From the IMG/VR virus record IMGVR_UViG_3300010338_000575: a DNA stretch of 64,000 nt; one strand, written 5' to 3'. This document shows positions 8,011 to 63,125 of this stretch, one piece after another. The DNA comes from a virus (Duplodnaviria > Caudoviricetes). Every line of letters starts with the position of its first letter. Positions within the stretch are counted from its first letter, which is position 1. The translations under genes were made by a program, and so were the position numbers. The notes below the pieces were generated by a model, which was not told the origin of the DNA, ran no database searches, and saw only the letters and a list, made by a program, of their open reading frames with translations.

Positions 8011-8420
8011 TGGATTATACAACATTTAATACAAAATTTTTTTATATTAAGAAGGATAGTACATATCCTGAATTAAAATATCCACTTACTCAACAATTAA
8101 GAGAATTGTACGGTATTACTGATGAAATGTTTGAAAATGTAGCAGTTACATTTTCGATGATAGATGCTGATAATGGTGTATATCGTATTGCAAACGTTGG
8201 TGCTGATTTAATTATCAATAATGATGTAGATAAATATCCTAATGAAGAAAGATATACGTTAGTATATAGGTTTAAATCAAAAGAAACATCTAAAAGCGGT
8301 AGTTATTACGGTGAATTTAAAATAAATTTCTTAGATAGTGATACTTGTATTACAATACCCAACAATAGATATATTAATATAACAATTCTCGATAGTATCA
8401 CAAAAACAACGGTAATTTAA
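8010..8420 (+). CDS. BppU N-terminal-like (Ig-like) virion protein
   Basis: FYIKKDSTYPxL...YYGEFKINF...IP pattern typical of baseplate-upper-protein-like domains. Confidence 0.5.
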   Translation: MDYTTFNTKFFYIKKDSTYPELKYPLTQQLRELYGITDEMFENVAVTFSMIDADNGVYRIANVGADLIINNDVDKYPNEERYTLVYRFKSKETSKSGSYYGEFKINFLDSDTCITIPNNRYINITILDSITKTTVI

Positions 8421-8451
8421 TTGACAAATAAAAATGTTTTATATATATTTG
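8421..8451 (+). promoter_or_regulatory. Bacteroidota housekeeping-sigma promoter (-33 TTG / -7 TAnnTTTG)
   Basis: TTG at 8421-8423, 20-nt spacer, TATATTTG at 8444-8451, upstream of the helicase. Confidence 0.75.
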
Positions 8452-8470
8452 CGAAATCAAAATATGATTT

Positions 8471-11664: not shown

Positions 11665-14600
11665 ATGGATAATAATACAACACTTAAAGAGATTAAACAA
11701 TTTCTTGATGGTCGCAATAATGACTATAAATATATCGTTAATGTTGAAACAAACCCAAATACCAATTATGCTGAATGTGTTGTACATGAGCCTGATAAAG
11801 AACCTAGAATTGAACGAATTCATTATGAGCCATTTTTATACATGAAAGATTTATCAAAGTATAATATTAAATTATATGATGATGTTTCTGATGAATACCA
11901 TGAAAGTAAAAAAATTAAATATGGAATTACTATAACTAAATTAGAAACTGGTAATCAAAAACGTCTCCTTGATGGATTTTGTTATAAAATAACAAGTAGC
12001 AGGTCATTTAATAGTATTATTGAATATTTAAAAGACGGGGGTATTGATCCGTATGAAAAATTATATGATAGTGATGGTAAATTAGTTAGAGATAATAAAA
12101 ATAATATTGCTTATAAAAATAAGCATTTGTTTTATTCAGTAAAAACAACAGAACAATTTTTAATATCAACTGGAATTAGATTATATAAAGGCATTGATGA
12201 TTATAAAAATATACATCGATTAATATTTGATATTGAAACAGAAGGTTTAAGGTATCAGATACATCGTATTTTATCAATTGGTATATATAGTAATAAAGGA
12301 TTTGAAACTATTTTAGATGTTGATAAGTTTGATGATGATGATGCTGAAATAAAATTAATTCAAGATTTTTTTAATCTCATAAATTATTTAAAACCTGCAA
12401 TTATTGCGGGTTTTAACTCTGAAATGTTTGACTTTGAATTTATTTTAGGTCGTGCTAAGTTATTAAGAATGGATTTATCACAAATACCCACATCGCTTAA
12501 ATTCGATATACCATTAAAAAGAGTACCAAATACATCAGTAAAATATGGTAGTACTACAGATAAGTATACGTGGACAAATATGTGGGGATATTCGGTAATT
12601 GATATTTTACATAGTGCAAAAAGAACAGCAGCAATAAATAGAGATATAAAAGAAACTGGCTTGAAGTACTTAGCAAAATTTGAAGGTGTTGCAAAGCCAA
12701 ATAGAACATATATTGATGGTGAAGATAATACGATTGGTAAATATTATAGAGAAAATAAAATTTTTCTTATAAATGATAAGAATGAGTATATACAAATACC
12801 AGACGAGTTTCAAACAATCGCACGTGAATTATATATTTTACAAGTGAACAAATCAAAATTATCTGATATTGAATATAATAAAAAAAAGATAAATATTTTA
12901 AATAAAAATAAAAATTTTGTTTATTGGTATAAGAATGAGGGGTTACCAAAAAATTTGAATAGATTTATTAGTGGTAAAAATTTAGTTAAACAATATCTAT
13001 TAGACGATTTATGGGAAACATATCAAATTGATGAATTGTATAATCAAACATCATTCATGCTTGCTAAAAATGTACCAACCACATATCAGCGTATTTGTAC
13101 TATGGGTACTGCGAGTATTTGGAACATATTATTAACTGCGTGGAGTTATGAAAATGATATTGCAATACCTGAATCAGATGAATATGAATTTTTTAGTGGT
13201 GGTTTATCAAGGTGTTTTAAAAAGGGTTATTCTAAAAGAATTATAAAAATCGATTACGCATCGCTATATCCAATGCTTCAACTTACATGGGATATTTTCC
13301 CTGATTTTGATATTACTGGTGTTATGAAAAAAATGTTGCTGTATTTTATAACAACACGTAATATATATAAACATATTGCAAGTAATAGTAATCTTAGTGA
13401 TGAAGAAGTTGGTTTATTAGAACAAATTGATCATGATTTTTTTGAAAAAATTATTAATAATAACATACAGACAGATGATGTTTTAAAGGCTAAAATAAAA
13501 CAATTACCTATAAAAATTTTGAATAATTCGTTATTCGGTGCATTAGGTTCTAACATTTCATTTAACTGGTCTGATAATAATTGTGCTGCACGAATTACAT
13601 CATGTGGTCGTTTATCATTAAGACATGCAATTAGTTGGTTTAAAAAATATAATTGCCAACCATTATTAGCGGTTACTGATGGTATTAATTTTCAAATACC
13701 AGATACAACAACAATTCGTGTTAGTGATGATAATGTTTATTATAATCAACCTGAAGATTTAATTGAAAATATGTGGCAATATCGTGGATTTACGGGTATT
13801 GATGCATTAATTGAAAAATTTAATGCTGAGGAAATGATACCGCCATATATGAAAGTTGATAATGATGGGTATAGTATATCTTGTTTAAATTTATCTCGTA
13901 TTAACTATGCAACATTAGTGGAAGTTAAAGATAAAAAAACTGGACAATTAAAAGAAAAAATTAAATTAACTGGCAATACTATTAAATCGAATGTGATGCC
14001 CGAATATATCGAAGAATTTATTGACAAGGCTTTGGATTTAATATTACACGGTAAGGGTGAAGAATTTGTTAAATATTATTACGATTATGTTGATGATATT
14101 CGATATATGCAAATACCACTACACAAAATTGCAAGTAAAAGTAGGGTGAAAACAACAATTAAGGGGTATCTAAATAGGGGTATGGATAAGAATGGTAGAG
14201 ATAAAGGTAAACAAGCCCATATGGAATTGATTATTGAACAAAGAAAAATGATTGCCGAAAAATTATTTGAAGAACATATTACTGAATTTGCAGATAATGT
14301 TGTGAATGATAATATTACTATTGAAGAAAAAATGAAATTAGTTTCGAATTATATGCCACCAGAACCAGAATTAGATAGTTATGTTTATTATGTTAATTGT
14401 GGTTATAATAAATCGCATGGGGATTCAAGTATTATTGTTGATAAAAAAACGGGTAAAAAGAGATTTGCTGCAGTTTTAGTTGATTTAAATAATCCTGAAA
14501 ACAACCCCAAAGAATATAATTATGTAAAATACTTGGATGCTTTTAATAAAAGGGTTAAAACATTATTAGTTGGTTTTGAATCAGATGTTGCTGATAGAAT

Positions 14601-15315
14601 TTTAGTTAAAATTAATAGAAATGGTGATTTAATAAAATCAGAATTTAATCCATTAAAAAATGAATTAGAATTGAAATCATTTGATTTAGATGATTTTGAA
14701 GAATCTTTGTATTTGGAAAAATCTGAGGTTGATTTTTGGAATAAAACTGGATATGATCCAAGAAAGGTGTGGAATGGTTTTAAAATGTTTGATGATTATA
14801 AAGTGCATTATGAAATTTATGAAAATGCGTTGAATTATTTAAATGAAAAAATGAAAAAAGCAAACAAGAATTTAATTAAATCTATTAATGATAATTATAA
14901 TATTGGTGATTATGTTTTGGTGAAAAATGGTAAACAATATAATATTGCAAAGTATAATGGGATTTATTTACAAACAATTAGATATGATGTTGAAGTACCT
15001 AAAAGTCAAATTGAAATTGAATTAGATAAAAGATATGAAGAAAATAAAAAACCAATCGATAATTTAAAAGAAAGTGAACTTGATAAAACAGATAGAGAGT
15101 TATTTTTAGAAAAACAATTAAATAAAAGATTGGAATTATTCATGAAATTTAAACAAAAATATGGTATACCATTATCCGCTACAATGGAAACTGTATTTTC
15201 TCAAATAGAAAATTCTGAAATGGCATTCAATGATTTTGTTAATGAAAATAGTAATGATAATGAATTAGATGACGAATATATTGATGTGGATGATTATATT
15301 GATGACACGTATTAA
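11665..15315 (+). CDS. polB: Family B DNA polymerase
   Basis: ExoI FDIETE, ExoII FNSEMFD, ExoIII YLLDD, motif A DYASLYP, motif B KILNNSLFG, variant motif C AVTDG. Confidence 0.92.
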   Translation: MDNNTTLKEIKQFLDGRNNDYKYIVNVETNPNTNYAECVVHEPDKEPRIERIHYEPFLYMKDLSKYNIKLYDDVSDEYHESKKIKYGITITKLETGNQKRLLDGFCYKITSSRSFNSIIEYLKDGGIDPYEKLYDSDGKLVRDNKNNIAYKNKHLFYSVKTTEQFLISTGIRLYKGIDDYKNIHRLIFDIETEGLRYQIHRILSIGIYSNKGFETILDVDKFDDDDAEIKLIQDFFNLINYLKPAIIAGFNSEMFDFEFILGRAKLLRMDLSQIPTSLKFDIPLKRVPNTSVKYGSTTDKYTWTNMWGYSVIDILHSAKRTAAINRDIKETGLKYLAKFEGVAKPNRTYIDGEDNTIGKYYRENKIFLINDKNEYIQIPDEFQTIARELYILQVNKSKLSDIEYNKKKINILNKNKNFVYWYKNEGLPKNLNRFISGKNLVKQYLLDDLWETYQIDELYNQTSFMLAKNVPTTYQRICTMGTASIWNILLTAWSYENDIAIPESDEYEFFSGGLSRCFKKGYSKRIIKIDYASLYPMLQLTWDIFPDFDITGVMKKMLLYFITTRNIYKHIASNSNLSDEEVGLLEQIDHDFFEKIINNNIQTDDVLKAKIKQLPIKILNNSLFGALGSNISFNWSDNNCAARITSCGRLSLRHAISWFKKYNCQPLLAVTDGINFQIPDTTTIRVSDDNVYYNQPEDLIENMWQYRGFTGIDALIEKFNAEEMIPPYMKVDNDGYSISCLNLSRINYATLVEVKDKKTGQLKEKIKLTGNTIKSNVMPEYIEEFIDKALDLILHGKGEEFVKYYYDYVDDIRYMQIPLHKIASKSRVKTTIKGYLNRGMDKNGRDKGKQAHMELIIEQRKMIAEKLFEEHITEFADNVVNDNITIEEKMKLVSNYMPPEPELDSYVYYVNCGYNKSHGDSSIIVDKKTGKKRFAAVLVDLNNPENNPKEYNYVKYLDAFNKRVKTLLVGFESDVADRILVKINRNGDLIKSEFNPLKNELELKSFDLDDFEESLYLEKSEVDFWNKTGYDPRKVWNGFKMFDDYKVHYEIYENALNYLNEKMKKANKNLIKSINDNYNIGDYVLVKNGKQYNIAKYNGIYLQTIRYDVEVPKSQIEIELDKRYEENKKPIDNLKESELDKTDRELFLEKQLNKRLELFMKFKQKYGIPLSATMETVFSQIENSEMAFNDFVNENSNDNELDDEYIDVDDYIDDTY

Positions 15316-15325
15316 TTTTTTATAA

Positions 15326-15333
15326 GTATTTAT
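15326..15333 (+). promoter_or_regulatory. Putative phage late promoter GTATTTAT
   Basis: Upstream of ATG 15350. Confidence 0.65.
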
Positions 15334-15349
15334 ATAAAATCGTAATGTT

Positions 15350-15982
15350 ATGAAAATAAAAAAGAAAGAATTATTCGAAATTATTGATGGTGATGGTGAA
15401 TTAATTGGTGCAGATAAAATACCTCAAAATGGTGTTGATTTGGATACTGCATCAAGTAGAACCACTGATTATAATGCAAATGTTGGTAATCAGCCATATC
15501 GTTATGATATGTTAGGTAGATTTGGTTTTACATTAATGCCTTTCATGGAAGGTAAGGAAGATAATATAGAACAGAAGAATTTATTTAATGATGTTGCTAA
15601 ATTTCTATATGAAAAATATGTTGAAAATTTAAAATTTTATTATAAAAATCCAAATAAACTTAAATCTGATTATAGGAAATTATATAACATAAAATATGAA
15701 TCATTACCTGATGATTTAAAAGAAATACAATATAATAACGCTAAAAATTTGATGAAAATAGTTAATGAACATTTTGAAAAGGCAATTGATTCGATGCAAA
15801 ATGTTGATGAGAGTAGTATTATTGAAGATATTATATTTGAAGATAATTTTGAGGATGAGTTATCAAAAAAAATAGAAGGCAATGATGTTTTGGATAAAAA
15901 AATAAAAAAAATTGCTGATTTAATTAATAGGTTAGATATTGAAAATAGAGAAAAATTAATTAAATTATTAGAGAGAAAATGA
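15350..15982 (+). CDS. Hypothetical protein, candidate head-internal protein
   Basis: Late motif upstream; multiple hydrophobic-x-E sites (LFE, FME, VDE, IIE, IFE). Confidence 0.6.
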   Translation: MKIKKKELFEIIDGDGELIGADKIPQNGVDLDTASSRTTDYNANVGNQPYRYDMLGRFGFTLMPFMEGKEDNIEQKNLFNDVAKFLYEKYVENLKFYYKNPNKLKSDYRKLYNIKYESLPDDLKEIQYNNAKNLMKIVNEHFEKAIDSMQNVDESSIIEDIIFEDNFEDELSKKIEGNDVLDKKIKKIADLINRLDIENREKLIKLLERK

Positions 15983-15983
15983 T

Positions 15984-16766
15984 ATGAATTCAGAACTATA
16001 TAATAATAAATATAAAATACCAGAAAAAATATTAAAACATATTCAATTTACTTTAATAAGTAATCCATCTGGTGAGGGTGTCAAACGTGCTAAATTTATT
16101 TTAAAAAACGGTTATTTAACATATCAAGAATTAAAAAGATTAAAAAATTATTTTGATTACTTTGATAAAAGTAAAGATAATATTATTCAATATAATCTTG
16201 CTGGTGGTGATTTGATGCGTTCTTTTATCGAGAGTACTTTGAATTCAGAAAGAGTTTCAGTTAAAAGAAGTCGTGAAATTAAAAGAGACATAACAACAAA
16301 TGTGAATTCTGAATTAAATCCATATAAAACACCAAGAATAAATCATGTTGAATTAAATGAAAATAAAGAAGAATTGAAAAAAAATGCTGTTGCAATTATT
16401 GTGAACAAGGATAATAAAATATTACTCTTAAAAAGATCGTTAAATCCCAATCAATGGATGCCCGGTAAATGGGCGTTAGTTGGTGGTGGTATTGAAAAGG
16501 GCGAAACACCTGAAGTGGCAATTAAACGTGAAATTGGTGAAGAAATTGGAATAAATGTTAATGATTTAACTTTTGTATTTAGTATACAACGTTTTAATGA
16601 TAGTATTGAATATTTGTTTGGTGGAAAATATGGTGGTGATCCTTTAAATATCACATTAAATGATGAACACACTAATTTTGGGTGGTTTGATATATCGGAA
16701 ATTAATTATTTAGATACAGTTCCACATTTAATTGAATACGTAACAATTGCATTTAAAAAGTATTAG
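15984..16766 (+). CDS. Nudix hydrolase fused to an N-terminal phage domain
   Basis: Nudix box GGGIEKGETPEVAIKREIGEEIG; ELNE linker precedes the Nudix domain. Confidence 0.85.
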   Translation: MNSELYNNKYKIPEKILKHIQFTLISNPSGEGVKRAKFILKNGYLTYQELKRLKNYFDYFDKSKDNIIQYNLAGGDLMRSFIESTLNSERVSVKRSREIKRDITTNVNSELNPYKTPRINHVELNENKEELKKNAVAIIVNKDNKILLLKRSLNPNQWMPGKWALVGGGIEKGETPEVAIKREIGEEIGINVNDLTFVFSIQRFNDSIEYLFGGKYGGDPLNITLNDEHTNFGWFDISEINYLDTVPHLIEYVTIAFKKY

Positions 16767-16773
16767 TATTTAT
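16766..16773 (+). promoter_or_regulatory. Putative phage late promoter GTATTTAT
   Basis: Upstream of ATG 16810. Confidence 0.65.
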
Positions 16774-16809
16774 ATAAAATAACTATAAAATAATAAAAAT
16801 AAAAATATT

Positions 16810-17061
16810 ATGGCAACATATTGTTTATTGGATGATAGTGAAAAATATCGTATTTGTAACTTGAATAGAAACGAATCATTATACACAGAAAATTGTTCGT
16901 ATGGTGACACACATTCACGTGCACTTTCTGATGGTGATTATTATGGTAGGGGATTGTATAATGAAAGTATCGGCACGTCTCTTGATATTGAAAAAAGAAA
17001 TAATTTAATGAATAAAAATGATTTTAATAAGAATTGTGATTACGGTGTTAGTAATTGCTAA
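16810..17061 (+). CDS. Small hypothetical protein
   Basis: 83-aa ORF with late motif upstream. Confidence 0.6.
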   Translation: MATYCLLDDSEKYRICNLNRNESLYTENCSYGDTHSRALSDGDYYGRGLYNESIGTSLDIEKRNNLMNKNDFNKNCDYGVSNC

Positions 17062-17075
17062 TATTTAGAGTTTTA

Positions 17076-18260
17076 ATGGAAGGTAAATTATTTTTTAATT
17101 ATTTAAAAAAATTTAGACATCTGCTTAATGAAGGTGTTGCTGAAAATAGTATTATTGATGCAATTAATAATCATGAGTGGATATATTTATATTATGTTGG
17201 TGATGATAAAATCGCTAGAGGATATAGGGTTGTAAGACCATATGTTCTTGGTACTGATAAAAGAACAGGTAAACGTGTTTTAAGGGCGTGGCAAGATAAT
17301 CCGATGAATAGTTGGCATTTTGATAATAGACCAACACGTAAAGATAGTTTAAAACATGATTATTGGGTTGATAATGAGGGTACAAAACCCGGTTGGAGAT
17401 TATTTCGTGTGGATAGAATTAGTAGAATATATCCAACTGGTAAAAAATTTGTTGATAGTAATGGTTTGGTTATGATACCTGCTGGTTATCATGAGGGTGG
17501 TGATGATGATATGAGTAGTATTGATGTTTATGTGTCGACAAAGAATGAACCCAATTTTGATTATAAATATGATGTTGACTACTATAATGCTACTTCTACA
17601 ACACAACCATCAGATATTGAAAGAGAGAAATGGCAAAGTATTCAAAGGGGTAATAAATATAGAAAACAAATTACAAGTACTGATATATCAACATTAGTAA
17701 ATCTAGCCAACAGATTTTATAAGAAAAAGAAAAGCAATTTTATTGTTGTGATTGATAGTAAGAACAATTATCAATTAGTAACACAAAAACAAATAGATTT
17801 TGCAAAGAAAAAATATGGTATTGATATACCTGATTATGCCATCGTTGGTAATTTATCTGATTTATATAATAAATATATTGAAAGAAATATTAAACAACAA
17901 ATAAGTGAAGAATTGTTACGTGATAATCGTTTTATTGCCAAGAAAAATGTATTTGAATTTTGGGTTGGAAATGATTTGTTTTTTAAGTTAAAATATAATA
18001 TTGAGTCACCAAATGAATTATTCAATGAAAAATACGTTTCAATATACGATTTAGTGGCATTTGAATCATTTGGTTGTGAGGGTTATGCTAGTAAATTGTT
18101 GGATAATATTTTTGATTATGTAAAGAAAAATTTAGGTATTAATATAATAACGTTAATTGTTTATAAAAATAATTATGATGCAATTAGTTTATATTTAAAA
18201 AAGGGATTTATTTTAATATCTGAATTTGATGATAATTATTCAATGGTAAAATTTTTATAA
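17076..18260 (+). CDS. WYL-domain protein with C-terminal GNAT acetyltransferase-like domain
   Basis: WYL: YLYY...RVVRPYVLG...LRAWQ...WRLFRVDRI. GNAT: GCEGYASKLL...LIVYKNNYDAISLYLKKGF. In-frame ATG at 17076 preferred over TTG 17055. Confidence 0.75.
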   Translation: MEGKLFFNYLKKFRHLLNEGVAENSIIDAINNHEWIYLYYVGDDKIARGYRVVRPYVLGTDKRTGKRVLRAWQDNPMNSWHFDNRPTRKDSLKHDYWVDNEGTKPGWRLFRVDRISRIYPTGKKFVDSNGLVMIPAGYHEGGDDDMSSIDVYVSTKNEPNFDYKYDVDYYNATSTTQPSDIEREKWQSIQRGNKYRKQITSTDISTLVNLANRFYKKKKSNFIVVIDSKNNYQLVTQKQIDFAKKKYGIDIPDYAIVGNLSDLYNKYIERNIKQQISEELLRDNRFIAKKNVFEFWVGNDLFFKLKYNIESPNELFNEKYVSIYDLVAFESFGCEGYASKLLDNIFDYVKKNLGINIITLIVYKNNYDAISLYLKKGFILISEFDDNYSMVKFL

Positions 18261-18286
18261 CATAAAGACTTTTTTATTTTTTATCA

Positions 18287-18294
18287 GTATTTAT
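18287..18294 (+). promoter_or_regulatory. Putative phage late promoter GTATTTAT
   Basis: Upstream of ATG 18328. Confidence 0.6.
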
Positions 18295-18327
18295 AATAAA
18301 TAATAAAATTTTATATTTTTTTATACT

Positions 18328-18990
18328 ATGAATAAATTAGATTTAAATAAATTAAAGAGTGAAATTGAAAATAAAAAACAAAAAAAGGGGGATGTGACAA
18401 CACCAAATAGTGCACCTAAATTTGTTTTCCTAAATGGTTTATTAGAATCGTTAAATACTGGTCGTGAAACCCAATCAACCGTTTTGTTAAAACATGTGGA
18501 TAATACTGTATCGAAAAAAAAGGGTGATGAAATTGTATATAAAAATATTCCAGAAGTAGCACCACCACATCTGCAACAGAATAATATTAATAGACCAATT
18601 AATAATATTGATTTGAATGATAGAGATGATAAATTTTATATGGATTTAGATAAGAAACGTCAAGAAACTCTTGCAGATTCAATTGAAAAATACGTGCAAA
18701 ATAATGTTTTTAATAATGGTGGTGCTAATTTATATAATAAACAAACATCTGACTATACAACTTCAAATGGTGTTCAATTAAGTGACAAAATGAAAGAACT
18801 GATAATTGAATTTCTTGGTGATAATTTAGTCCCAATAATTGAAGATACAATAAAAAATGTAATTATTGAAATGTATACAATTGAAAGAATAAAAAAATCA
18901 TTAAATGATAATAAAGAAATAATACAAAAAATTGTTTACGATTATTTAAAAGAAATAAAAGCCAAATCGAAACAAAACGGGGTGAAATAA
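18328..18990 (+). CDS. Hypothetical protein
   Basis: 220-aa ORF between late motif and terminator. Confidence 0.6.
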   Translation: MNKLDLNKLKSEIENKKQKKGDVTTPNSAPKFVFLNGLLESLNTGRETQSTVLLKHVDNTVSKKKGDEIVYKNIPEVAPPHLQQNNINRPINNIDLNDRDDKFYMDLDKKRQETLADSIEKYVQNNVFNNGGANLYNKQTSDYTTSNGVQLSDKMKELIIEFLGDNLVPIIEDTIKNVIIEMYTIERIKKSLNDNKEIIQKIVYDYLKEIKAKSKQNGVK

Positions 18991-19004
18991 AATCACCCCG
19001 TTTT
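18974..19004 (+). terminator. Rho-independent terminator
   Basis: AAAACGGGGTGA/TCACCCCGTTTT inverted repeat. Confidence 0.75.
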
Positions 19005-19015
19005 CACATAAATTA

Positions 19016-19023
19016 GTATTTAT
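19016..19023 (+). promoter_or_regulatory. Putative phage late promoter GTATTTAT
   Basis: Directly after the terminator, upstream of ATG 19058. Confidence 0.7.
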
Positions 19024-19057
19024 TATTAAAATAATAAAAATAAATAATATTAATTTT

Positions 19058-21586
19058 ATGTCTAATTTCGATTTTAATTCATTTTTAGATAAATTTAAAA
19101 AAATATCAACTTTTATTGGTAGAATTAATTTTGCTAATGAACATTTAGAAAAAATCGGTAGTGGTAGTGGTAGAGTTGTTTATAAAATTGATGATTATAG
19201 AGTATTTAAAATAGCAAAAAACAATAAAGGTGTTGCACAAAATGAAGTTGAAATAAGACTTAGTGATGATATATATGCTCCTGATATAATTACTAAAATA
19301 TACGAATATGCAGATGATTATAGTTGGATTATTGCTGAAAGGGCAAAGAAATTATCATTGGGTAGATTTAGAGAATTGACAAATGTTAATGATTTGTATA
19401 AATTAAAAAACTATTTAGAATGTTCAATAAACCCTAATAAATGTTATTATGGTAATGTTGACGAATTGAATAAAATATTTGATGATAATGAATTTGCACA
19501 AGAATTGTTAGATTTGGTAGTAAATTTTAGTATAAGCGTTGGTGATTTTGGTAGATTAAGTAGTTATGGCGAAGTGGTTCGAGATGGTGAATCTCTTGTT
19601 GTTATTACCGATTATGGTCTCAATGATGAGGTGTATGAAAAGCATTATAATCCACAAAGAAAGGGGAATTTAAAACTATATGAAGTATTTCCATTTTTTG
19701 ATGGTAATTACGATATATTATCAAATGTAAGTGGTGATGGTGATATAAGAAAATCAATGTGGGCATTATTACCATATGGTGTTGGTGATGGTATTAATGC
19801 TGTTAATGAAAATTTTGTTAATTTTGTTTTAAAAAACGATAAATATCCATCCAAACCAATAAAGGATATATATAAATTAGAAAATTGTTATGTTGATTGT
19901 GTATCTAATTTAAAAAATATATTAATCAATATCGCAGATATTGATGATAGAAAAAGATTCATTACTAATTTAGTTAAATTACAGGAATATTTAAATAAAC
20001 ATAGTGTATTTGGTTTTGATGAAATATTAACAGAAGATATTGATGATGATGCAATACCTAAAGTTGATAAATATAATAGTCCTTTTGTTGATTTAAATTA
20101 TTGGTATAACATTGCTAATGATTTAAGCGAAATGTTGGGTTTGGGTGGTTTAAAATATATAAAAGGTGGTGGTTTTGGACATGCATATAGAGCGGGGGAT
20201 AAGGTATTAAAATTGACAGTAGACCCATGTGAAATTGATTCTGGGATAAAAATTATGGGTGTTAATAATGCTGTAAAACATTTAGTCCATGTTTATAAAC
20301 TCTATAAAGTTTTTAATACTGAAAAGAATTTATCGTTTTTTATATTGGTTTTGGAATATATTGATACAACACGTAATTCAGAATTTAAACAATACTATGA
20401 TGTTGGTAGTGATATTTTAAAAAAGTGGGATTTATTCGATAGTGTTTTTAATTTTATATCAAAATTAAAGAATAAAAATTATACATTAGAAATGTATAAA
20501 AATGCAATTGATCATATATTAACCGACGATGCTTTAGGCTATGATTACGAAACGAGAAAAAATGCACATAAATTTTGGATGGAATTGTATCTAATAAAAA
20601 ATGAAATAAATGAATTGAATATTAAATCAACTGATTATTTAAATTGGGATAATCTTGGTTATAGGGGTGATGTATTGGTTTTTTTTGATTTAGGTGGTTG
20701 TCGCCCAGATGAAAATGTTGAGAACAAAATTCCTCTTATTAAATTACCAGAAAACGTTGAATACATTAATGAAAATTTAAATTATGATGAAATTGCAAAT
20801 AAAATAGCAAATAAATTAAATATTAAGGTATTTGATAGAATTGGTGCTGGTAATTTTGGTGTTGCATATGACATTGGTAATAATTTGGTTATGAAAATAA
20901 CAAATGATAGTAGTGAAGCGTATGAAAATTTGAAATTAATTGGTAAGCCATTAAAATATATTGCACAACCATATAAGGTATATAATGTAAATAAAAATGA
21001 CAATAGTGTTACAAAAAAATTATATGTTATTATTTTAGAAAAATTAAAAACAAGTTCAGATATTCGACAATCCTTTGAAAGATTAACATATGTTTTTAAG
21101 AATATTTTTAATATTGATTTGCCCGATGCTGTTGAACATTTTTTAGATATTTGGAAAAACGATAAGATTGATGTGAATAAAATAAATGCATATTTTAGAA
21201 AAAATCCACATGATGCAGAATTTTTCAACGGATTATTAAATATTGGAAAAGAATTGATGAAATACGATATTGTAAGTATGGATTATTTAAAATGGGAAAA
21301 TCTTGGTTATAAAAATAATAATATTGCATTTTTTGATGTTGGATTTGGTAATTATTTTAATTCACCAGATGATGCAGAAACAATTGATATTGATGAGGAT
21401 GGTAGTTCATTATATTCAACCACTAATACTATTGGTAATGATGATTATCCCGTTTATAATCAGGATAATATTCCACCAACAATTGATAATAATATTGATG
21501 TGAATACTGCAATATATTCGGAAAATAAAAAATCATTTCTTCCAAATTCAAAAATTGTTACGATTAAAAAAAAAAGTGTAAATTAG
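19058..21586 (+). CDS. N-terminal part of a giant multidomain protein: three protein-kinase-like domains
   Basis: Gly loops GSGSGRVVY, GGGFGHAY, GAGNFGVAY; Lys in FKIAK, LKLT, MKIT; DYG, DLG, DVG. Continues in the -1 frame at the A10 run 21566-21575. Confidence 0.8.
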   Translation: MSNFDFNSFLDKFKKISTFIGRINFANEHLEKIGSGSGRVVYKIDDYRVFKIAKNNKGVAQNEVEIRLSDDIYAPDIITKIYEYADDYSWIIAERAKKLSLGRFRELTNVNDLYKLKNYLECSINPNKCYYGNVDELNKIFDDNEFAQELLDLVVNFSISVGDFGRLSSYGEVVRDGESLVVITDYGLNDEVYEKHYNPQRKGNLKLYEVFPFFDGNYDILSNVSGDGDIRKSMWALLPYGVGDGINAVNENFVNFVLKNDKYPSKPIKDIYKLENCYVDCVSNLKNILINIADIDDRKRFITNLVKLQEYLNKHSVFGFDEILTEDIDDDAIPKVDKYNSPFVDLNYWYNIANDLSEMLGLGGLKYIKGGGFGHAYRAGDKVLKLTVDPCEIDSGIKIMGVNNAVKHLVHVYKLYKVFNTEKNLSFFILVLEYIDTTRNSEFKQYYDVGSDILKKWDLFDSVFNFISKLKNKNYTLEMYKNAIDHILTDDALGYDYETRKNAHKFWMELYLIKNEINELNIKSTDYLNWDNLGYRGDVLVFFDLGGCRPDENVENKIPLIKLPENVEYINENLNYDEIANKIANKLNIKVFDRIGAGNFGVAYDIGNNLVMKITNDSSEAYENLKLIGKPLKYIAQPYKVYNVNKNDNSVTKKLYVIILEKLKTSSDIRQSFERLTYVFKNIFNIDLPDAVEHFLDIWKNDKIDVNKINAYFRKNPHDAEFFNGLLNIGKELMKYDIVSMDYLKWENLGYKNNNIAFFDVGFGNYFNSPDDAETIDIDEDGSSLYSTTNTIGNDDYPVYNQDNIPPTIDNNIDVNTAIYSENKKSFLPNSKIVTIKKKSVN

Positions 21587-24500
21587 GTGGTTTAGGTAAT
21601 GTAAGTGCTGCTTGTAATCAGGGTGATATTAATAATTTATCATTTTCATTTGTTAAAGAAAGTGTTGGTGATAAGTTATTTCAAAATAAATTTCAATACA
21701 AGTCTGATTTTGATGATTTTGAGAAAAAATATAGAAAAGAATTTGCAAATGATTCAGAAAATATTGTATATTCAGAAGATAATGATTTTTTTATTATAAA
21801 AAATCCCAATAATATAAATAATTTAGATTCAGATGTTCGTGCTATTGGTGATGATGATGGTAATTTGTACGTTGAATCATATCCCAAATATACACATTCT
21901 GATATGCATAATATTTTAAGGTATAAAGGAGTATTAACAAAAAGTTATGATGAGAATTGGCATAAATCATACCCTAAAAATTATATCTATTTACAAAGAA
22001 TTGGTGATACCCAAATATTTGTATTAGCAGAATCGTATTTAATTTTAATATATGATGATGATAGATTTCCCGAAAATTATGATTTGCCTTCAAGAGAAGA
22101 AGTATTACCAGTATTTAAATTGTTTTTAGATAAATTAAAACAAAAAAATCCAAATATTGATTTTGTTAATGAATATATTAATTATTATGTGAATGAAAAT
22201 ATTAATGAAAATGATGATATGAATAATAACGGTGAAAAATACTATCGTGCCGTTGATAAATATTTAGGCAAATATGCTAAATTTAAACCAAATGGTTATT
22301 ATGAAGCAATTGATGATAACAATAATCCCATTTTCAAATATGATTCATTTTGGGAAAGTGAAATACCCGAAATTGCTGCTAGTAAACTTATCGGTGGTGC
22401 AATTATGGGTTTATATTCAATGTATTTAGAAAATAAAAAAACACCCAAAACGTTTTATATATATGAAATCAATGAAAAACCAGACATTGATATATCACAT
22501 TGGAATATGGGTGATTTTGCGTATTTGAAAGAGGTTCGATATAGGAGACCTGTTAGTGGTCGTTATGTTGGAAAATTTATATTTGATGATGACACAATAA
22601 AAAGATTTGAAGTGTTTTATGAAATAAACAATATTGATGGTTGGGGAAGTGAGTATGATATTGATGATGAAACGATTGAATTATTTAATAAAACGAATTT
22701 TGGTGAATTGTTACGTGATTTAAAAAATAAATTAAGTGAAAATAATAAAATTAATGAAAATGATTTAATTAAATTACACGAACTACCGTTTAAAGATGAG
22801 ATTAAAAAATTAGGTGGTAAAATATATAGTGTTGGTGGTGCTGTTCGTGATGAATTTCTCGGAAAAAAATCAAAAGATTTGGATTTACTAATTACTGGAA
22901 TCCCAATGAATAAATTGGAAGAAATATTATCAAAATATGGTCGTGTTGATGTTGTTGGTAAGTCTTTCGGTATTTTAAAATTTAAACCAAATGGTTTTGA
23001 AGATGATATTGATATTGCGATTCCTCGTACTGAAAGACCAACTGGTGCTGGTGGGCATAAAGGTTTTGAAGTAATATCAAATCATGAACTTCCAATTGAA
23101 AAGGATTTAGAACGTAGAGATTTTACAATTAATGCAATTGCGAAAGATATTAATGGTAATATAATTGATCCATACGGGGGTGTTGATGATTTAAAAAATA
23201 AAATAATACGTATTGTTAATCCAGATGCGTTTAGTGATGACCCATTAAGAATGCTTCGTGCAGTACAATTTGCAAGTCGTTTTGGTTTTAATATTGAACC
23301 CAAAACATTGAAAATGATTCAGAATAATGCACATAGAATCAATGAAATATCATCTGAGAGAATATTGACAGAATTTGATAAAATTATAAAAAAGGGTGAT
23401 TGTTTTACTGGTGCGTTTTTATTAAAACAAACAGGGTTATTAAAAAATATATTTGGTAAAGATGGTGGTATTTTGATTAATGATGATGTTTGGAATAATG
23501 TTAGGACGATGGGTGAATTTATTTATTTACTTTCACATAATATTGTTGATAACCCTGCTGAGTTTTATAAAAAGAAATTAAAGGGTGATATTGATACATA
23601 TAAAGAAATAAGGGCACTTCAATTAGCATTTGAATATGGTGATGTAAATAATCCAATCGAATCACGTTCAATTGCACATAATATGTATGTTATAAGTCCC
23701 AAAACATTAGATAGTATGATTTTACCTAATAGTATAAAAATTGCTGCAAATGAATTATTATCAGGTAAATATCCGAAAACTATTAATGAACTTAAAATAA
23801 ACGGAAATGATTTAATTTCAATGGGATTGAAGGATAAGGAAATTGGTAAAATGTTAAAACAACTATTATTAAAAATATATGCAGATAAGATAGTTAATGA
23901 TAAAAAAACATTACTTGATTTTGTGAAAAATAGTACACAAAAAATTAATGAGAATGGTGTATCATTATCGCATCTAAATTATAGTTTAAGATATCCTAAT
24001 AAAGACGTATTAGTGTTTGTGCCTGTTGATAAATTATTATCACGACACGAAATAGATGATCCAGATTACGCAATTACTAATAAAAATAATCAAATTGGCA
24101 ATCGTGTTGAAAGAGCAAAAGAATTTTTACAAAATTATGTTGATGATATTTGTTGGATTAATCCACAAACTGGTGTGCGTAATGATAAATATAATGTAAT
24201 TTTTGAACCATCAATTGCATATTTTTATAATAATAAATTAAAATTTAGTGATGGTAGGCATCGAATATTGGCTGCGAAAGAATTGGGTTATGATAAAGTT
24301 GCGCTTGAAATACCACAAGAACAATTAGATTTATTTGTTAACGAATTGGATGCGGAAATTGTTGATAAAAAAATAAATGAGGGAAAATGGTATGTTGATG
24401 GTAAATTGGTTGATATTAATTTTTTTATAAAAAAATTTGATGAATGGAATCAAAAAAACGGTGGTAAGTTTGAAATAACAAGAGAAGTTGTAAAAAATTT

Positions 24501-24618
24501 TTTAATATCAAATTTTAAAAAATTAAGCAACAATAAATGGTTATTTAATGAATTGGTATGGGCGTTAAATGATAGAGATTTGTTAAATGAAAATCTTTCT
24601 AAACGTGATAATAATTAA
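21568..24618 (+). CDS. cca: C-terminal part of giant protein: ART-like, CCA-adding enzyme and ParB/Srx-like domains
   Basis: Frame of ORF 21865 is open back to the A10 run (KKKCKLGGLGNVSAACNQGD...). VGGAVRD..DLD, RRDFTINAIA, DDPLRMLR (class II tRNA nucleotidyltransferase); SDGRHR (ParB). Confidence 0.8.
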   Translation, partial: KKKCKLGGLGNVSAACNQGDINNLSFSFVKESVGDKLFQNKFQYKSDFDDFEKKYRKEFANDSENIVYSEDNDFFIIKNPNNINNLDSDVRAIGDDDGNLYVESYPKYTHSDMHNILRYKGVLTKSYDENWHKSYPKNYIYLQRIGDTQIFVLAESYLILIYDDDRFPENYDLPSREEVLPVFKLFLDKLKQKNPNIDFVNEYINYYVNENINENDDMNNNGEKYYRAVDKYLGKYAKFKPNGYYEAIDDNNNPIFKYDSFWESEIPEIAASKLIGGAIMGLYSMYLENKKTPKTFYIYEINEKPDIDISHWNMGDFAYLKEVRYRRPVSGRYVGKFIFDDDTIKRFEVFYEINNIDGWGSEYDIDDETIELFNKTNFGELLRDLKNKLSENNKINENDLIKLHELPFKDEIKKLGGKIYSVGGAVRDEFLGKKSKDLDLLITGIPMNKLEEILSKYGRVDVVGKSFGILKFKPNGFEDDIDIAIPRTERPTGAGGHKGFEVISNHELPIEKDLERRDFTINAIAKDINGNIIDPYGGVDDLKNKIIRIVNPDAFSDDPLRMLRAVQFASRFGFNIEPKTLKMIQNNAHRINEISSERILTEFDKIIKKGDCFTGAFLLKQTGLLKNIFGKDGGILINDDVWNNVRTMGEFIYLLSHNIVDNPAEFYKKKLKGDIDTYKEIRALQLAFEYGDVNNPIESRSIAHNMYVISPKTLDSMILPNSIKIAANELLSGKYPKTINELKINGNDLISMGLKDKEIGKMLKQLLLKIYADKIVNDKKTLLDFVKNSTQKINENGVSLSHLNYSLRYPNKDVLVFVPVDKLLSRHEIDDPDYAITNKNNQIGNRVERAKEFLQNYVDDICWINPQTGVRNDKYNVIFEPSIAYFYNNKLKFSDGRHRILAAKELGYDKVALEIPQEQLDLFVNELDAEIVDKKINEGKWYVDGKLVDINFFIKKFDEWNQKNGGKFEITREVVKNFLISNFKKLSNNKWLFNELVWALNDRDLLNENLSKRDNN

Positions 24619-24672
24619 ATAATTAATATTATTAATGAAAATAATTAGTTTTATATTCAATATAAATATAAT

Positions 24673-24834
24673 ATGAAAGAAGCAAAAAAAATTAAACCAG
24701 AAGATGTTGCAAAATATCTTGATTTGGAAATTGAATATGATAATGCATTATTATTAGAAGAAATGTTAAAAAAAAATTATGAAATTATAATGTCAGATTA
24801 TTTTGAAAATAATAACATTAACATAAAAAAATAA
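24673..24834 (+). CDS. 53-aa hypothetical protein resembling the C-terminus of the downstream ArdC-like protein
   Basis: Not in ORF track; IKPEDVAKYLDLEIEY vs ITPMDVAKVLGVTDEY in ORF 25095. Confidence 0.5.
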   Translation: MKEAKKIKPEDVAKYLDLEIEYDNALLLEEMLKKNYEIIMSDYFENNNINIKK

Positions 24835-24842
24835 ATTTTATT

Positions 24843-26387
24843 ATGAAAAAAAATATTAATGAAGCCTTTGTTGTTAGTAAAAGGTTTGATAAAAAAGGAA
24901 ATCCAATTGCGTTTATTGATCCAACCAAACCCGAAAATAATAACACATTTAAATATAAAGATATTTTAAAAGATTATGGTGCTAAATGGGATGGTGAAAA
25001 TAAATATTGGTTTTGGTATATTGGAAAAAATAAAGAACAATGGAATAATGTCTATCATAAATTTATCGAACCAGCATAAAAAAAAATACATTCAATGGAA
25101 AATGTTGGTGAGGATGATAGTAAACAATCATTGATTAAATCAATAGAAAATGTATTAGAAGAACTTAATAATACGCCAGTTGGTAGTGATGAAAATGTTA
25201 CTAATAACGATAAGTTTGATGTTAAAAATAGATTGCAAAAATTTAAAGAAATGTTAATTAATATTGATAATGATGAAGATTTTAAAAAAACAATGAGATC
25301 AATATTAGCATTTAAAAACTTATTGGGACACATATATAGTTTTCGTAATACATTGCTCATTTATATACAAAGACCAGATGCTCAAATGGTGAAAAGTGAG
25401 TTGAATTGGAATGCCGTAAATAGAGAAGTTGTTGATAAATCAAAAAGAATACTAATTATAGCACCAGCGAGAAGTGCTTTTAAAAGATACACACCTGATG
25501 AGAAAAAAAGAATTATCATTAATTTTTTAAATTCGTTGGGTAAAAAATCAGAAGATGAATTAACATTAGGTGAAAAAGAAAAATTAAGAGTATTGTTGCG
25601 TGGTAAATTGGTGAAAAATGAATTTGAATTAGCACCTGTTTATGATATTACTGATACTAAACAAATTGAAGGTAAAGAGAATTTGGTAAAAGATGTTGAT
25701 GATTTCATAAATATGAAATGGTATGTTGATGATTATAAAACGAGTGAAATAACACCATTATATAACGCTTTATTAAAATTTGCCGATGAAAATGGAATAT
25801 CTATTAGTTTTGAGGAAAAAGATTCTAAAATATTAAAAGGAGCAAGGGGTGCTAGTATTGGTGGTAAGATTTATGTTTTAAAGAACGATGGTAATGATGT
25901 TGGAATTACAAAAACACTTGCACACGAAATATTTCATGAATTGCTACATCAAAAATATTTAAGTCAAAAAAATTCAAAATATGCAGCATATTTTGTCGGT
26001 AATGAGAATGGTAGGGGATTGGTTGAACAACAAGCAGAATTATCTGCATGGATGTTATTGGCATCGTTTGGTTTTGATTTAAAAACCACATCAATAAATT
26101 ATGTTGCAATTTGGGGTGCTGATAAGGATGCAATGGTTCGTGTGTTTGATACAATTGCAAATGTTGTGAATTTTATGATAGATTATGTAAATGGTGTAAT
26201 CACAACATTTGCATCAACAAATGTGAAATTAAGTGAGGTTGAAAATATTGTAAAAAAAGGAAAACATATCACGCCAATGGATGTTGCAAAGGTGCTTGGA
26301 GTTACCGATGAGTATAAAGAAGTTCTGAGTGATTTAAGAAATAAAATTAATGAACATTTTTATAGATTTGTAAAAAGAAAATTATAA
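24843..26387 (+). pseudogene. DUF5710-like + ArdC-like ssDNA-binding + zincin metallopeptidase protein, interrupted by in-frame TAA at 25077
   Basis: ORFs 24843 and 25095 are in the same frame with one stop between them (PA*KKIHSMEN). KDILKDYGAKWDGENKYW, YSFRNTLLIYIQRP, HEIFHELLH, EQQAE. Confidence 0.65.
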
Positions 26388-26405
26388 AAATTTTGAAATT
26401 TTTTA

Positions 26406-26413
26406 TACCTTTG
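26406..26413 (+). promoter_or_regulatory. Bacteroidota -7 element TACCTTTG
   Basis: TAnnTTTG 20 nt upstream of the 2H gene; canonical -33 spacing not evident. Confidence 0.5.
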
Positions 26414-26432
26414 TAAAAAAAACATAAAAACT

Positions 26433-26810
26433 ATGAATAAAATTCGATATAGTGCAGTTGTATTGGATGAAAAATCACATAATGAAATTGTTAATCGATT
26501 TAAAACAATAATTCCAACTGGTTGGGAAATAATTGCACATCACATGACGATTAATTTGGGTGAACTTGATGAAAAATATAAAAAGTATTTAAATAAATCA
26601 GTAAAATTAATTGCACATGATATTGGTATTGATGATATGGCGGTTGCAGTTGGAGTGTCTGGTTTTTTTAGTAAAAATAAAAAACCACATATCACATTAG
26701 CGGTTAATAGAAAAAATGGTGGTAAACCTGTAATGTCGAATTATATAAATGATTGGATGCCATTAACAAATCCAATCGAATTAATTGGTATTGTTAAAGA
26801 AATTGAATAA
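26433..26810 (+). CDS. 2H phosphoesterase (tRNA-ligase CPDase-like 2',3'-cyclic phosphodiesterase)
   Basis: Two HxT motifs, HHMTI and PHITL; KPVMSN motif. Confidence 0.8.
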   Translation: MNKIRYSAVVLDEKSHNEIVNRFKTIIPTGWEIIAHHMTINLGELDEKYKKYLNKSVKLIAHDIGIDDMAVAVGVSGFFSKNKKPHITLAVNRKNGGKPVMSNYINDWMPLTNPIELIGIVKEIE

Positions 26811-26812
26811 TT

Positions 26813-27370
26813 ATGATAAAAAGATTAGTAGCGTTTGATTTTGATGGTACTTTAATAGATTCACCATTACCTGAATATGGTAAATTAGTTTGGTCTGAAA
26901 AAAAGGGAATTCCATATCCACATTCTGGTTGGTGGAGTAAACCAGAAAGTCTTGATATTGATGTTTTTGACATAAAACCCAATCCCGTTGTATATTCGCA
27001 ATATTTAAAAGAAATATCAACACCAAACACATATGTTATTATATTAACATCGAGACTAAAAAAATTAGAAGAACAAATTAAATTGGTATTAGAACAAAAC
27101 AATATATTTGTTAATGAAATCAATACAAAAAATACAAACGAAACTAAGGGAATTAGAATACTAAAATATTTAGACAAATTTCCTGAAATAAATGAGATTT
27201 CAGTATTTGATGATAGTATTGATGTGATTGAAAATGAATACAATACAATTAAACACTTATTACCAGATAATTTATCGTTTAATATATATTTTGTTAATAA
27301 TAATAAATTAACATTAGTTGAATCAAAAATAATTGATATTATTAGGGATGAATTAATAAAATTAATTTAA
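26813..27370 (+). CDS. HAD phosphatase, Swiss-army-knife RNA-repair type
   Basis: FDFDGTLIDSP...GWWSKPESL, LTSR, TK, FDD motifs. Confidence 0.75.
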   Translation: MIKRLVAFDFDGTLIDSPLPEYGKLVWSEKKGIPYPHSGWWSKPESLDIDVFDIKPNPVVYSQYLKEISTPNTYVIILTSRLKKLEEQIKLVLEQNNIFVNEINTKNTNETKGIRILKYLDKFPEINEISVFDDSIDVIENEYNTIKHLLPDNLSFNIYFVNNNKLTLVESKIIDIIRDELIKLI

Positions 27371-27372
27371 TA

Positions 27373-27380
27373 GTATTTAT
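27373..27380 (+). promoter_or_regulatory. Putative phage late promoter GTATTTAT
   Basis: Upstream of ATG 27402. Confidence 0.65.
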
Positions 27381-27401
27381 TATATAATAAATAAAAATTT
27401 T

Positions 27402-28223
27402 ATGCATAAAAACGGTAGACCATATTATTTACCACAAATAAGTGCGCCATATAATATTGTTTTAGATAAATTGAATGATGATAATATTGGTTATAATATC
27501 ATTAGATTTAAACCCAATGATAATGATAAAATATTACCATCACAAAAGGTTATTTATTCAGATATTATTGAAAAATGTGAAATAAATAATAATAACCCGA
27601 TTTGGTTATCAACTGATAATGATGTATTAACAATTTGTGATGGACATCATCGTTATTTTAAGGCTCTTTATGATAATGTGCCGATATTAGGTATTGTATT
27701 GAATGTCTGTTTTAACGATGCTTGTCGTATTTTAAATAAAATTCAAGATATTTTTGATTATGAAAAATCTAAATCAATTGAAAATGACGTTAATCAAAAT
27801 ATAATTGATTTGAAACAAGATGATGAAAATCAATTTTTAAATGCGCTTGAAGAACATAATGGTTTATTAGGTGGTAATAAAAATAATAAAAAAATAATTG
27901 CATATAGAAAAGGTTCAATTATTGAAAATTCGGTTATTGGTAATTTTTTTTGTTTAAATCCAATTAAGGGTTATGATAAATACGAAATTGAATTTGATAA
28001 TTTATTGGATGTGAAAGACTTGGGTGTAAAATATAGAAAAAACGAAAAACCCGTAGATATTTTGTGTAATATTTGGTTTCCGCATATTAATTTTAACACA
28101 CTCGCAAGTAAATATAACGTATCTTTGGATAATTTAAAATATAAGGCAATTACAGAATTTGCAAAAAAATTGGGTTATGACGGTGTTAAATATGATGATA
28201 ATTTAATACAAGGGTTTAAATAA
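27402..28223 (+). CDS. ParB/Srx-like domain plus possible ART-like C-terminal domain
   Basis: PSQK...PIWLS...ICDGHHRY (ParB); IAYR...GNFF...AKKLGYDGVKY resembles ART-PolyVal-like domains. Confidence 0.6.
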   Translation: MHKNGRPYYLPQISAPYNIVLDKLNDDNIGYNIIRFKPNDNDKILPSQKVIYSDIIEKCEINNNNPIWLSTDNDVLTICDGHHRYFKALYDNVPILGIVLNVCFNDACRILNKIQDIFDYEKSKSIENDVNQNIIDLKQDDENQFLNALEEHNGLLGGNKNNKKIIAYRKGSIIENSVIGNFFCLNPIKGYDKYEIEFDNLLDVKDLGVKYRKNEKPVDILCNIWFPHINFNTLASKYNVSLDNLKYKAITEFAKKLGYDGVKYDDNLIQGFK

Positions 28224-45119: not shown

Positions 45120-45125
45120 AAAAAC

Positions 45126-45156
45126 TTGCAATATTCATAATTTTATTGTATGTTTG
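45126..45156 (+). promoter_or_regulatory. Bacteroidota housekeeping-sigma promoter
   Basis: TTG 45126-45128, 20-nt spacer, TATGTTTG 45149-45156. Confidence 0.7.
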
Positions 45157-45203
45157 ACAAAATTTTTTTAATTATTTTATTTGTCTAATAATATATAAAA
45201 AAA

Positions 45204-49388: not shown

Positions 49389-49455
49389 AGACAAAATATG
49401 AATTTTTGACATTTTTAATTAAAAAACATTATGACTTTTTGACTTATAAAAAAAC

Positions 49456-49486
49456 TTGCTTGATTGAAATTTATTTTATAGTTTTG
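49456..49486 (+). promoter_or_regulatory. Bacteroidota housekeeping-sigma promoter
   Basis: TTG 49456-49458, 20-nt spacer, TAGTTTTG 49479-49486. Confidence 0.7.
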
Positions 49487-49491
49487 TAAAA

Positions 49492-49534
49492 AAAATGAGT
49501 TATGATAAAGAAAATGAGTTATGATAAAGAAAAT
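49492..49534 (+). repeat. 19-bp tandem duplication spanning a start codon
   Basis: AAAATGAGTTATGATAAAG x2 plus AAAAT. Confidence 0.9.
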
Positions 49535-63075: not shown

Positions 63076-63125
63076 ATGTTATTATATTTGATGCGCATGT
63101 CGAACCATTAAATTCTAATTAAATT

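Follow-up and report, generated by a model that had tools for sequence, protein, structure and literature searches.

The 64,000-nucleotide (nt) stretch of DNA analyzed here (the window; IMG/VR record IMGVR_UViG_3300010338_000575, from a virus of the class Caudoviricetes) contains, at positions 15350–28223, a block of enzyme genes that includes a giant polyvalent gene of about 1,857 codons. Our preferred reading, a tentative one to which we give just short of an even chance, is that this is a late-expressed enzyme block of which at least part is loaded into the prohead, trimmed by a gp21-type protease and injected, as phage T4 does with Alt. The block genes would be made late, together with the head proteins; part of the set, for which the giant protein, a HAD phosphatase and two small proteins of 210 and 220 amino acids (aa) are candidates, would join the prohead core, where the 220-aa protein would act as a core or adaptor component. 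The gp21-type protease would trim at a few exposed hydrophobic-hydrophobic-x-Glu motifs resembling the I-N-E/S site of the capsid protein (the stroke marks the predicted cut), and the trimmed proteins would accompany the DNA into the next host, in the manner of T4 Alt and the T4 internal proteins. Capsid loading is a reasonable mechanism because the giant gene fits the polyvalent-protein class and the clade has a T4-type head.

An alignment of family B DNA polymerase (PolB) recovered 80 IMG/VR relatives, among them five complete genomes of 322–365 kb. The clade is one of T4-like jumbo phages of about 320–365 kb, with Bacteroidota as the probable hosts. Seven relatives (g1, g2, and G003–G007) were read across the block, giving eight genomes with the window; G006 is a complete genome of 321 kb. 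Each of the five complete genomes has genes for a gp21-family (Peptidase_S77) prohead protease (E-values down to 2e-19) and a gp23-family capsid protein (down to 2e-65), the closest cultured counterpart of which, at 32% identity, is that of a Flavobacterium phage. Neither family was found in the fragmentary relatives G001 and G002, in whose flanks PHROG scans returned replication and recombination genes only. An invariant M-I-N-E/S of the clade's capsid protein aligns just before the mature N-terminus of T4 gp23, and the maturation cut is predicted to fall at I-N-E/S. In T4, 65 residues are removed from gp23 and Alt is trimmed at both ends (PMC9026906); the first 10 residues target a protein, residues 8 and 10 govern its processing, and terminal propeptides span 7–19 residues.

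Late expression of the block is suggested by the motif GTATTTAT, which occurs 27 times in the window against 15.3±3.8 copies expected. Five copies lie 17–35 nt ahead of start codons in the block, the fourth of them behind a hairpin:

15326–15333, + strand: GTATTTAT promoter motif before the gene at 15350, kept in 8/8 genomes
16766–16773, + strand: GTATTTAT promoter motif before the gene at 16810, kept in 7/8
18287–18294, + strand: GTATTTAT promoter motif before the gene at 18328, kept in 8/8
18974–19004, no strand: G+C-rich hairpin read from the sequence, a putative terminator between the gene at 18328 and the giant gene
19016–19023, + strand: GTATTTAT promoter motif before the giant gene, present in 7/7 rows aligned there
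27373–27380, + strand: GTATTTAT promoter motif before the gene at 27402, kept in 8/8

A hairpin of the same kind lies ahead of the promoter in relatives that have the kinase start of the giant gene (7 rows). Followed by A/T, GTATTTAT also stands 13–40 nt before gene starts elsewhere, in the window those of baseplate and amidase genes, in relatives those of scaffold-like genes and of their neighbors in the head region. The likeliest role for it is that of the clade's late promoter, and it is from this motif that the timing of expression is deduced. Replication genes bear host-type TAnnTTTG boxes instead. These boxes lie 27–55 nt ahead of the primase-helicase, 2H phosphoesterase, SbcD, SbcC, and exonuclease genes, none of which has GTATTTAT, thus pointing to two promoter classes and to a Bacteroidota host. 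The Bacteroidota-type boxes of the window fall at 8420–8470, 26388–26432, 45120–45203, 49400–49520, and 63076–63125. Searching with a strict two-box pattern for Bacteroidetes promoters was uninformative, and sigma-70-like sites occurred at chance level.

The second line of evidence is a portable motif, hh-x-[ED]-E-h (h, hydrophobic; typically I-I-N-E-E-I), which in G006 falls within the first 20 residues of the products of 6/49 late genes vs. 3/421 other genes (Fisher 6e-5). The six late proteins, candidates for bearing a capsid-targeting leader, are not homologous to one another and carry I-I-(N/T/K)-E-E at residues 6–15; their genes in G006 are:

L127:945–1541
L127:13721–14161
L129:6692–7576
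L129:11420–11980
L130:2864–3244
L135:7808–8425

One of the six is an ART-PolyVal ADP-ribosyltransferase (ART; 36.1 bits vs. a cut-off of 31.2). A homologue, 45% identical, forms a module of the G007 giant protein directly past a conserved Cys-loop motif (see below); there I-I-K-E-E precedes the module at 30 residues (10 in the stand-alone protein), and a second I-I-K-E follows it. A second tagged protein stands alone, with its leader, in G005 and G007 and is embedded in the giant proteins of the window, G006, and g2. Orthologues of the HAD phosphatase end in the I-I-N-E-E-I motif (5/8 strictly), of which the C-terminal helix of the window's protein (27329–27352) is a degenerate copy. The motif might be a combined capsid address and cleavage mark, set at N-termini, C-termini, and internal borders and sharing its core with the capsid maturation site, such that effector modules (ART, phosphatase, and others) could be exchanged between separate late genes and the giant protein of 1,850–2,250 aa and yet be loaded, cut free, and injected, while the Cys-loop motif anchored the giant protein in the prohead core; we regard this specific proposal as unlikely. 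As a separate observation, positions 57617–59926 of the window encode a late protein of 769 aa that has a DUF3008-like unit and six [IL]-N-E sites vs. 1.1 expected, and its G006 orthologue has I-I-N-E-E-V near the C-terminus.

Two small proteins of the block add to these observations. Leaders that end in a hydrophobic-x-Glu (h-x-E) site are found in 40/40 distinct orthologues of the 210-aa protein, where [LIV]-x-E closes a leader of 7–13 residues with the middle residue free, as well as in 8/8 WYL and 2/2 DUF5710 proteins; terminal sites of this kind are not a feature of the Nudix, 220-aa, 2H, or ParB-like families. The 210-aa layout matches, by analogy, that of T4, in which residues 8 and 10 are the processing determinants. 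Among the block families, the 220-aa protein alone has an excess of [ILVM]-x-E that is both consistent (z 1.8–5.5 in eight orthologues) and specific to Glu, h-x-K and h-x-D not being enriched. In G006 no protein is denser in these sites than the orthologue of the 220-aa protein (7.9 per 100 aa). The corresponding densities are 7.8 for T4 gp22, 5.3 for the clade's scaffold-like protein, and 1.6 for the window outside the block.

The window has a G+C content of about 25%, with nearly all genes on the + strand. Upstream of the block lie a primase-helicase gene (8471–11290) and then the PolB gene (11665–15315), which immediately adjoins it; downstream are a glycosyltransferase gene and baseplate wedge genes (31629, 32045), the baseplate genes starting 3.4 kb past the block. 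The genes of the block, with domain assignments, are:

15350–15982, + strand: 210-aa protein without Pfam or PHROG match; leader of 7–13 aa (usually 10) ending in [LIV]-x-E, then I-[IV]-[DN]
15984–16766, + strand: Nudix hydrolase (PF00293, E 3e-19) with a conserved N-terminal domain of no assigned family
16810–17061, + strand: small Cys-rich protein, kept in relatives
17076–18260, + strand: fusion of a WYL-like part (weak match) and GNAT (E 1e-6), with an N-terminal L-L-(T/N)-E near residue 19 in 8/8
18328–18990, + strand: 220-aa poorly structured protein with Glu-specific [ILVM]-x-E excess; mean confidence (pLDDT) of the Atlas model 0.53
19058–24618, + strand: giant polyvalent gene of about 1,857 codons, in two frames meeting at an A10 run (21566–21575)
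24673–24834, + strand: 53-aa open reading frame (ORF), conserved in g2
24843–26387, + strand: DUF5710 plus ArdC-N/zincin (H-E-x-x-H) protein; two ORFs sharing a frame, parted by one TAA (25077–25079)
26433–26810, + strand: 2H phosphoesterase (weak match) carrying a pair of H-x-T motifs; in G003 and G006 it forms one protein with the CCA enzyme
26813–27370, + strand: HAD phosphatase of polynucleotide-kinase-phosphatase type, with weak HAD_SAK_1 and PHROG polynucleotide-kinase matches
27402–28223, + strand: 273-aa protein with a ParB/Srx-like D-G-H-H-R motif and no family match

The original prediction, made from the letters of the window, had described a 13-kb run of genes, mostly preceded by GTATTTAT and encoding a variety of enzymes. 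The gene layout is as it described, every ORF of the block lying on the + strand, and the five promoter sites were confirmed. The enzyme assignments fared unevenly: Nudix, GNAT, and CCA are firm; HAD, zincin/ArdC, WYL, DUF5710, and 2H are weak calls, the matches to HAD_SAK_1, MPTase-PolyVal plus ArdC-N, WYL, DUF5710, and 2H falling below Pfam cut-offs (MPTase-PolyVal 16.5 bits vs. 27.5); kinase and ParB are read mainly from motifs; and the ART-like domain placed at 22230–22600 lacks Pfam support. Pfam scans matched no family model to the kinase and ParB-like parts of the window's proteins, and further scans of the kinase, WYL, ParB-like, and ArdC-like orthologues gave no new domain calls. PHROG kinase matches were obtained for the first kinase copy only, the three glycine-loop motifs having been read from the sequence, and the ParB call is based on D-G-(H/R)-H-R motifs. 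A search of the ESM Atlas returned no named relatives. The idea of an ART-like domain at the end of the ParB-like protein was considered and rejected, and an extension of the HAD protein in g2 resembles the ART protein over 20 residues only.

The CCA-adding/poly(A) polymerase head matches at E 2e-23, and CCA enzymes of the PDB at E 5e-29; head and RNA-binding neck are both present (PF01743, 83.8 bits; PF12627, 54.1 bits), as is expected of class II. The domain is thus solidly predicted to be a class II CCA-adding enzyme or poly(A) polymerase, the assignment covering CCA-adding and A-tailing specificity alike.

The core order (210-aa, Nudix, Cys-rich, WYL, 220-aa, giant gene, 2H, HAD, ParB-like) is kept in all eight genomes, and order and promoters persist at a mere 35–60% protein identity. 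Accessory parts vary. The ArdC-like gene is found in the window and g2 and is absent from g1 and G003–G007; its DUF5710 and ArdC parts are fused in g2, where they form one 519-codon gene, and are split in the window by the in-frame TAA at 25077–25079, which is followed by an A run. GNAT is fused to the WYL-like protein in this genome only among the eight, the ATG at 17076 agreeing better with orthologues as the start of that fusion than the TTG at 17055. The Cys-rich protein reaches about 186 aa in g1 and G004, with three tandem copies of its unit in g1 (L007:15897–16457).

In the window the giant gene appears as two ORFs, 19058–21586 and 21571–24618, between which the frame changes at the A10 run. 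The orthologue is a single ORF in g1 and G004–G007 (747–2,247 codons in these five relatives), thus the two ORFs are one gene. One extra A, or a −1 slip, would join the 842-codon kinase ORF to the CCA ORF, and in relatives the frame stays open across a similar run; the frame change reflects slippage during transcription, a genuine truncation, or a mistake in the assembly. In G003 and g2 the gene is split in another way, by LAGLIDADG or Vsr/DUF559-type homing-endonuclease inserts (L113:8182–9003; L015:17917–18768). The gene encodes three kinase-like units, the Cys-loop motif, a variable module, the CCA-adding enzyme, and a ParB-like motif. As judged from these predicted domains, it fits the class of polyvalent proteins, which combine two or more disparate activities in one phage polypeptide. 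When the PolyVal families of Pfam were used as a test, ART-PolyVal passed its cut-off in the stand-alone G006 protein, and the window's MPTase-PolyVal match stayed below its own. The Cys-loop motif (21577–21670; about 30 residues with two Cys, G-G, and Q-G-D) is 65–83% identical in the eight genomes, a level that the giant protein reaches nowhere else outside its CCA domain, and has no family match of its own; it is always followed by [LIV]-x-E, at the point where the sequences begin to differ, and then by the variable module. In relatives, Acb1-like/LigT and tRNA-ligase-type 2H domains follow the CCA domain. In the giant genes of G004–G006 (L114–L116) this 2H domain has Acb1-like (anti-CBASS; CBASS, cyclic-oligonucleotide-based antiphage signaling system) and LigT matches, and the window has a ParB-like segment in the same place.

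The chief alternative is that the block encodes late counter-defence and RNA-maintenance enzymes that act in the cytoplasm and are never packaged: within the producing cell the CCA-adding enzyme, 2H phosphoesterases, HAD phosphatase, and Nudix would heal the ends of tRNA and other RNA and degrade nucleotide signals, the kinases, GNAT, and ParB-like domains would modify host targets, and the whole set would sustain translation against defences triggered by late proteins, and both h-x-E and I-I-N-E-E would be features of helices or of composition. We consider this a serious contender, somewhat below an even chance. The CCA domain is solid; the 2H protein is fused to it in G003 and G006, the G006 orthologue scoring 33 bits against tRNA_lig_CPD, and the 2H domains of G004–G006 have the Acb1-like/LigT matches noted above; the HAD protein matches the 'Swiss Army Knife RNA repair' family and a polynucleotide-kinase PHROG; and the enzymes show no motif enrichment. 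The 2H–HAD pair has, in this genome, a host-type box at −27, though the box is not conserved in relatives. Family scans of the block's proteins found no RNA ligase, the rest of the genome not having been searched for ligases. What this alternative leaves unexplained is the late, terminator-insulated promoter before the giant gene (7/7); the position of the ArdC-like protein, of anti-restriction type, right behind a late promoter in g2 and within the giant gene's late unit here; the mobile boundary motif at the N-termini of unrelated late proteins, an ART among them; and the scaffold-like site density of the 220-aa family.

Several observations count against capsid loading. CCA-adding enzyme, 2H, and HAD form a coherent cytoplasmic RNA-end repair set. 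The head genes were read in relatives at about 60% PolB identity and not in the window's own genome, and the 210-aa, 220-aa, and ParB-like proteins have no homologue in the phage database or a cultured relative. No ORF of the window begins with the strict N-terminal motif, and the codons of the N-terminal motif are the most A+T-rich, so that part of its signal could stem from selection on the 5′ end of the mRNA in strongly expressed late genes. The generic site gives no better support: [ILVM]-x-E has z≈0 in the Nudix, WYL, ArdC-like, 2H, and ParB-like families across eight genomes, as in a glycosyltransferase control; N-terminal h-x-E sites in G006 are found in 41% of late genes vs. 38% of others; a fixed T4-like leader (hydrophobic residue 8, Glu 10) shows no genome-wide excess in G006; and the N-terminal site of the giant protein is kept in 5/7.

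A stricter form of the packaging idea, close to the original prediction, would have every enzyme tagged and the protease cutting h-x-E at each domain border, thereby turning polyproteins into separate injected enzymes. The premise of a prohead protease held up, with the gp21/gp23 pair present in every complete relative, and all of the h-x-E sites that had been named exist in the sequence, several of them flanking modules. The [LIV]-x-E after the Cys-loop motif is kept in all eight genomes, the G007 ART module is bounded by I-I-K-E on both sides, and the block has 15 [IL]-N-E sites vs. about 6 expected, a match to the predicted capsid site. Eight of these 15 lie in ORF 21571–24618 (8 vs. 1.4 expected), the motif having been picked after the data had been looked at; the excess is confined to this genome, orthologues having two sites in 1,554 aa and six in 2,247 aa.

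The claimed enrichment of h-x-E at domain borders, by contrast, did not survive. In composition-preserving shuffles the block's 86–90 [ILVM]-x-E sites in about 4,100 residues compare with 69–77 expected (z 2.0–2.5), barely above composition; the rest of the window gives z 1.0–1.7 and the primase-helicase by itself z 2.3. At a spacing of about one site per 47 aa, simple arithmetic gives any chosen boundary a chance of about 36% of having a site no more than 10 residues away on either side. Where a named site could be aligned with a counterpart, h-x-E was retained by one or more relatives in four cases and by none in the others (any such site is kept in 52%); there is no conservation of the sites ahead of Nudix, GNAT, and the CCA domain or of the K-L-S-E that follows the zincin. 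Conserved N-terminal h-x-E sites are found in PolB and SbcD too (background in other genes, 6/33); the feature does not separate block from non-block genes, and the Nudix, ParB-like, 2H, and ArdC-like proteins have no conserved terminal motif beyond the PolB/SbcD level. Site density along the giant proteins is flat, far below scaffold level, with no propeptide-like clusters. Of four short amphipathic tags that had been proposed, two lie within the block (17889, 27329), one lies outside it at 57401, and I-K-K-I-I-L-E-E was not found. The generic site occurs at background frequency, thus the argument from sites at domain borders fails: the h-x-E pattern first cited is background, not evidence. 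We therefore judge cleavage at every border improbable; the broader idea of capsid-packaged effectors keeps the protease, the late promoter, and the mobile motif and loses the h-x-E argument.

Least probable is that the block is an accessory-gene hot spot without shared mechanism, its promoter marking only a broad phage-specific transcription class, since core order and promoters are conserved in all eight genomes at such low protein identity, even though domains and genes are gained and lost among relatives (GNAT, ArdC-like, kinase copies), mobile endonuclease genes insert in the giant gene, and GTATTTAT also precedes a few non-structural genes in G006.

The packaging reading finds its closest parallel in T4 Alt and the T4 internal proteins. 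The clade shares with T4 the gp21-family protease and gp23-family capsid protein, short N-terminal leaders ending in hydrophobic-x-Glu, and, as one of the tagged late proteins, an ART, the class to which the packaged Alt also belongs; the candidate genes lie away from the head cluster, as the alt and ip genes do in T4, and the C-terminal motif of the HAD protein may be compared with the trimming of Alt at both ends (PMC9026906). The clade motif, I-I-(N/K)-E-E, differs from the T4 decapeptide in lying at a variable distance from the start and at internal borders, and the candidates, here known from their genes, include a protein of 1,850–2,250 aa, far larger than Alt.

Injection with the DNA has already been predicted for polyvalent proteins, phage examples of which lie near late genes (Iyer, Burroughs, Anand, de Souza, Aravind 2017, PMC5512222), and the block fits as an instance of that published prediction. 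Like those proteins, the giant product would hold many unrelated enzymatic domains in one polypeptide in a late-gene neighborhood; the domain repertoire (protein-kinase-like, ART, GNAT, ParB-like, 2H, zincin, ArdC-N) is shared, as is the exchange of satellite cassettes with the main gene. Unlike them, the clade's protein has a class II CCA-adding enzyme as its conserved core, whereas the Pol-beta domains of the published set are minimal nucleotidyltransferases from Firmicutes elements, and processing there is expected from a zincin peptidase rather than a prohead protease (PMC5512222). The triple kinase units are a further difference, and only ART-PolyVal passes its Pfam cut-off, in relatives and not in the window.

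In the Dar antirestriction system of phage P1 (DarA, DarB, DdrA, DdrB, Ulx, and Hdf), small accessory proteins assist in the packing of large enzymes into the head, and the proteins act on entry. A ParB-like domain and a zincin occur in one system there as here; no sequence relation was found between the two, the head lineage differs, and a role for the small proteins of the block akin to that in P1 is a guess. The ejection and inner-body proteins of phiKZ, 201phi2-1, and SPN3US, likewise giant phages, offer a further comparison: a gp175-type protease there cleaves many proteins inside the head, behind Glu and at short motifs (PMC9026906); this clade instead has the classical gp21/gp23 pair. 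Phage RNA-end repair sets (T4 Pnkp/Rnl; Swiss Army Knife) resemble the block in having HAD, 2H, kinase-like, and CCA-adding activities side by side or fused, and differ in that the kinases here have protein-kinase glycine loops, not P-loops, and the promoters are of the late class. Jumbo phages commonly carry RNA-repair gene sets (PMC7824862). In XacN1, a CCA transferase and a kinase-phosphatase were read as tRNA processing and repair genes; ORF170 of that phage, a homologue of the kinase, is not mentioned in the paper's text on virion proteins.

For A+T-rich phage genomes in general, counting h-x-E sites is not usable as evidence. If loading into the capsid is not real, the block is a conserved late RNA-repair/counter-defence module with an unusual kinase–CCA–2H fusion. 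The analysis also yields short, concrete tag candidates, together with a predicted pairing of protease and substrate that can be put to an in vitro test with no need to grow the phage. Should loading prove real, the T4 propeptide rule, by which a terminal segment serves as an address and is removed by the head protease, would extend to a whole set of exchangeable effectors, a CCA-adding enzyme and protein kinases among them, and the prediction made for polyvalent proteins would for the first time be tied to a defined protease site.

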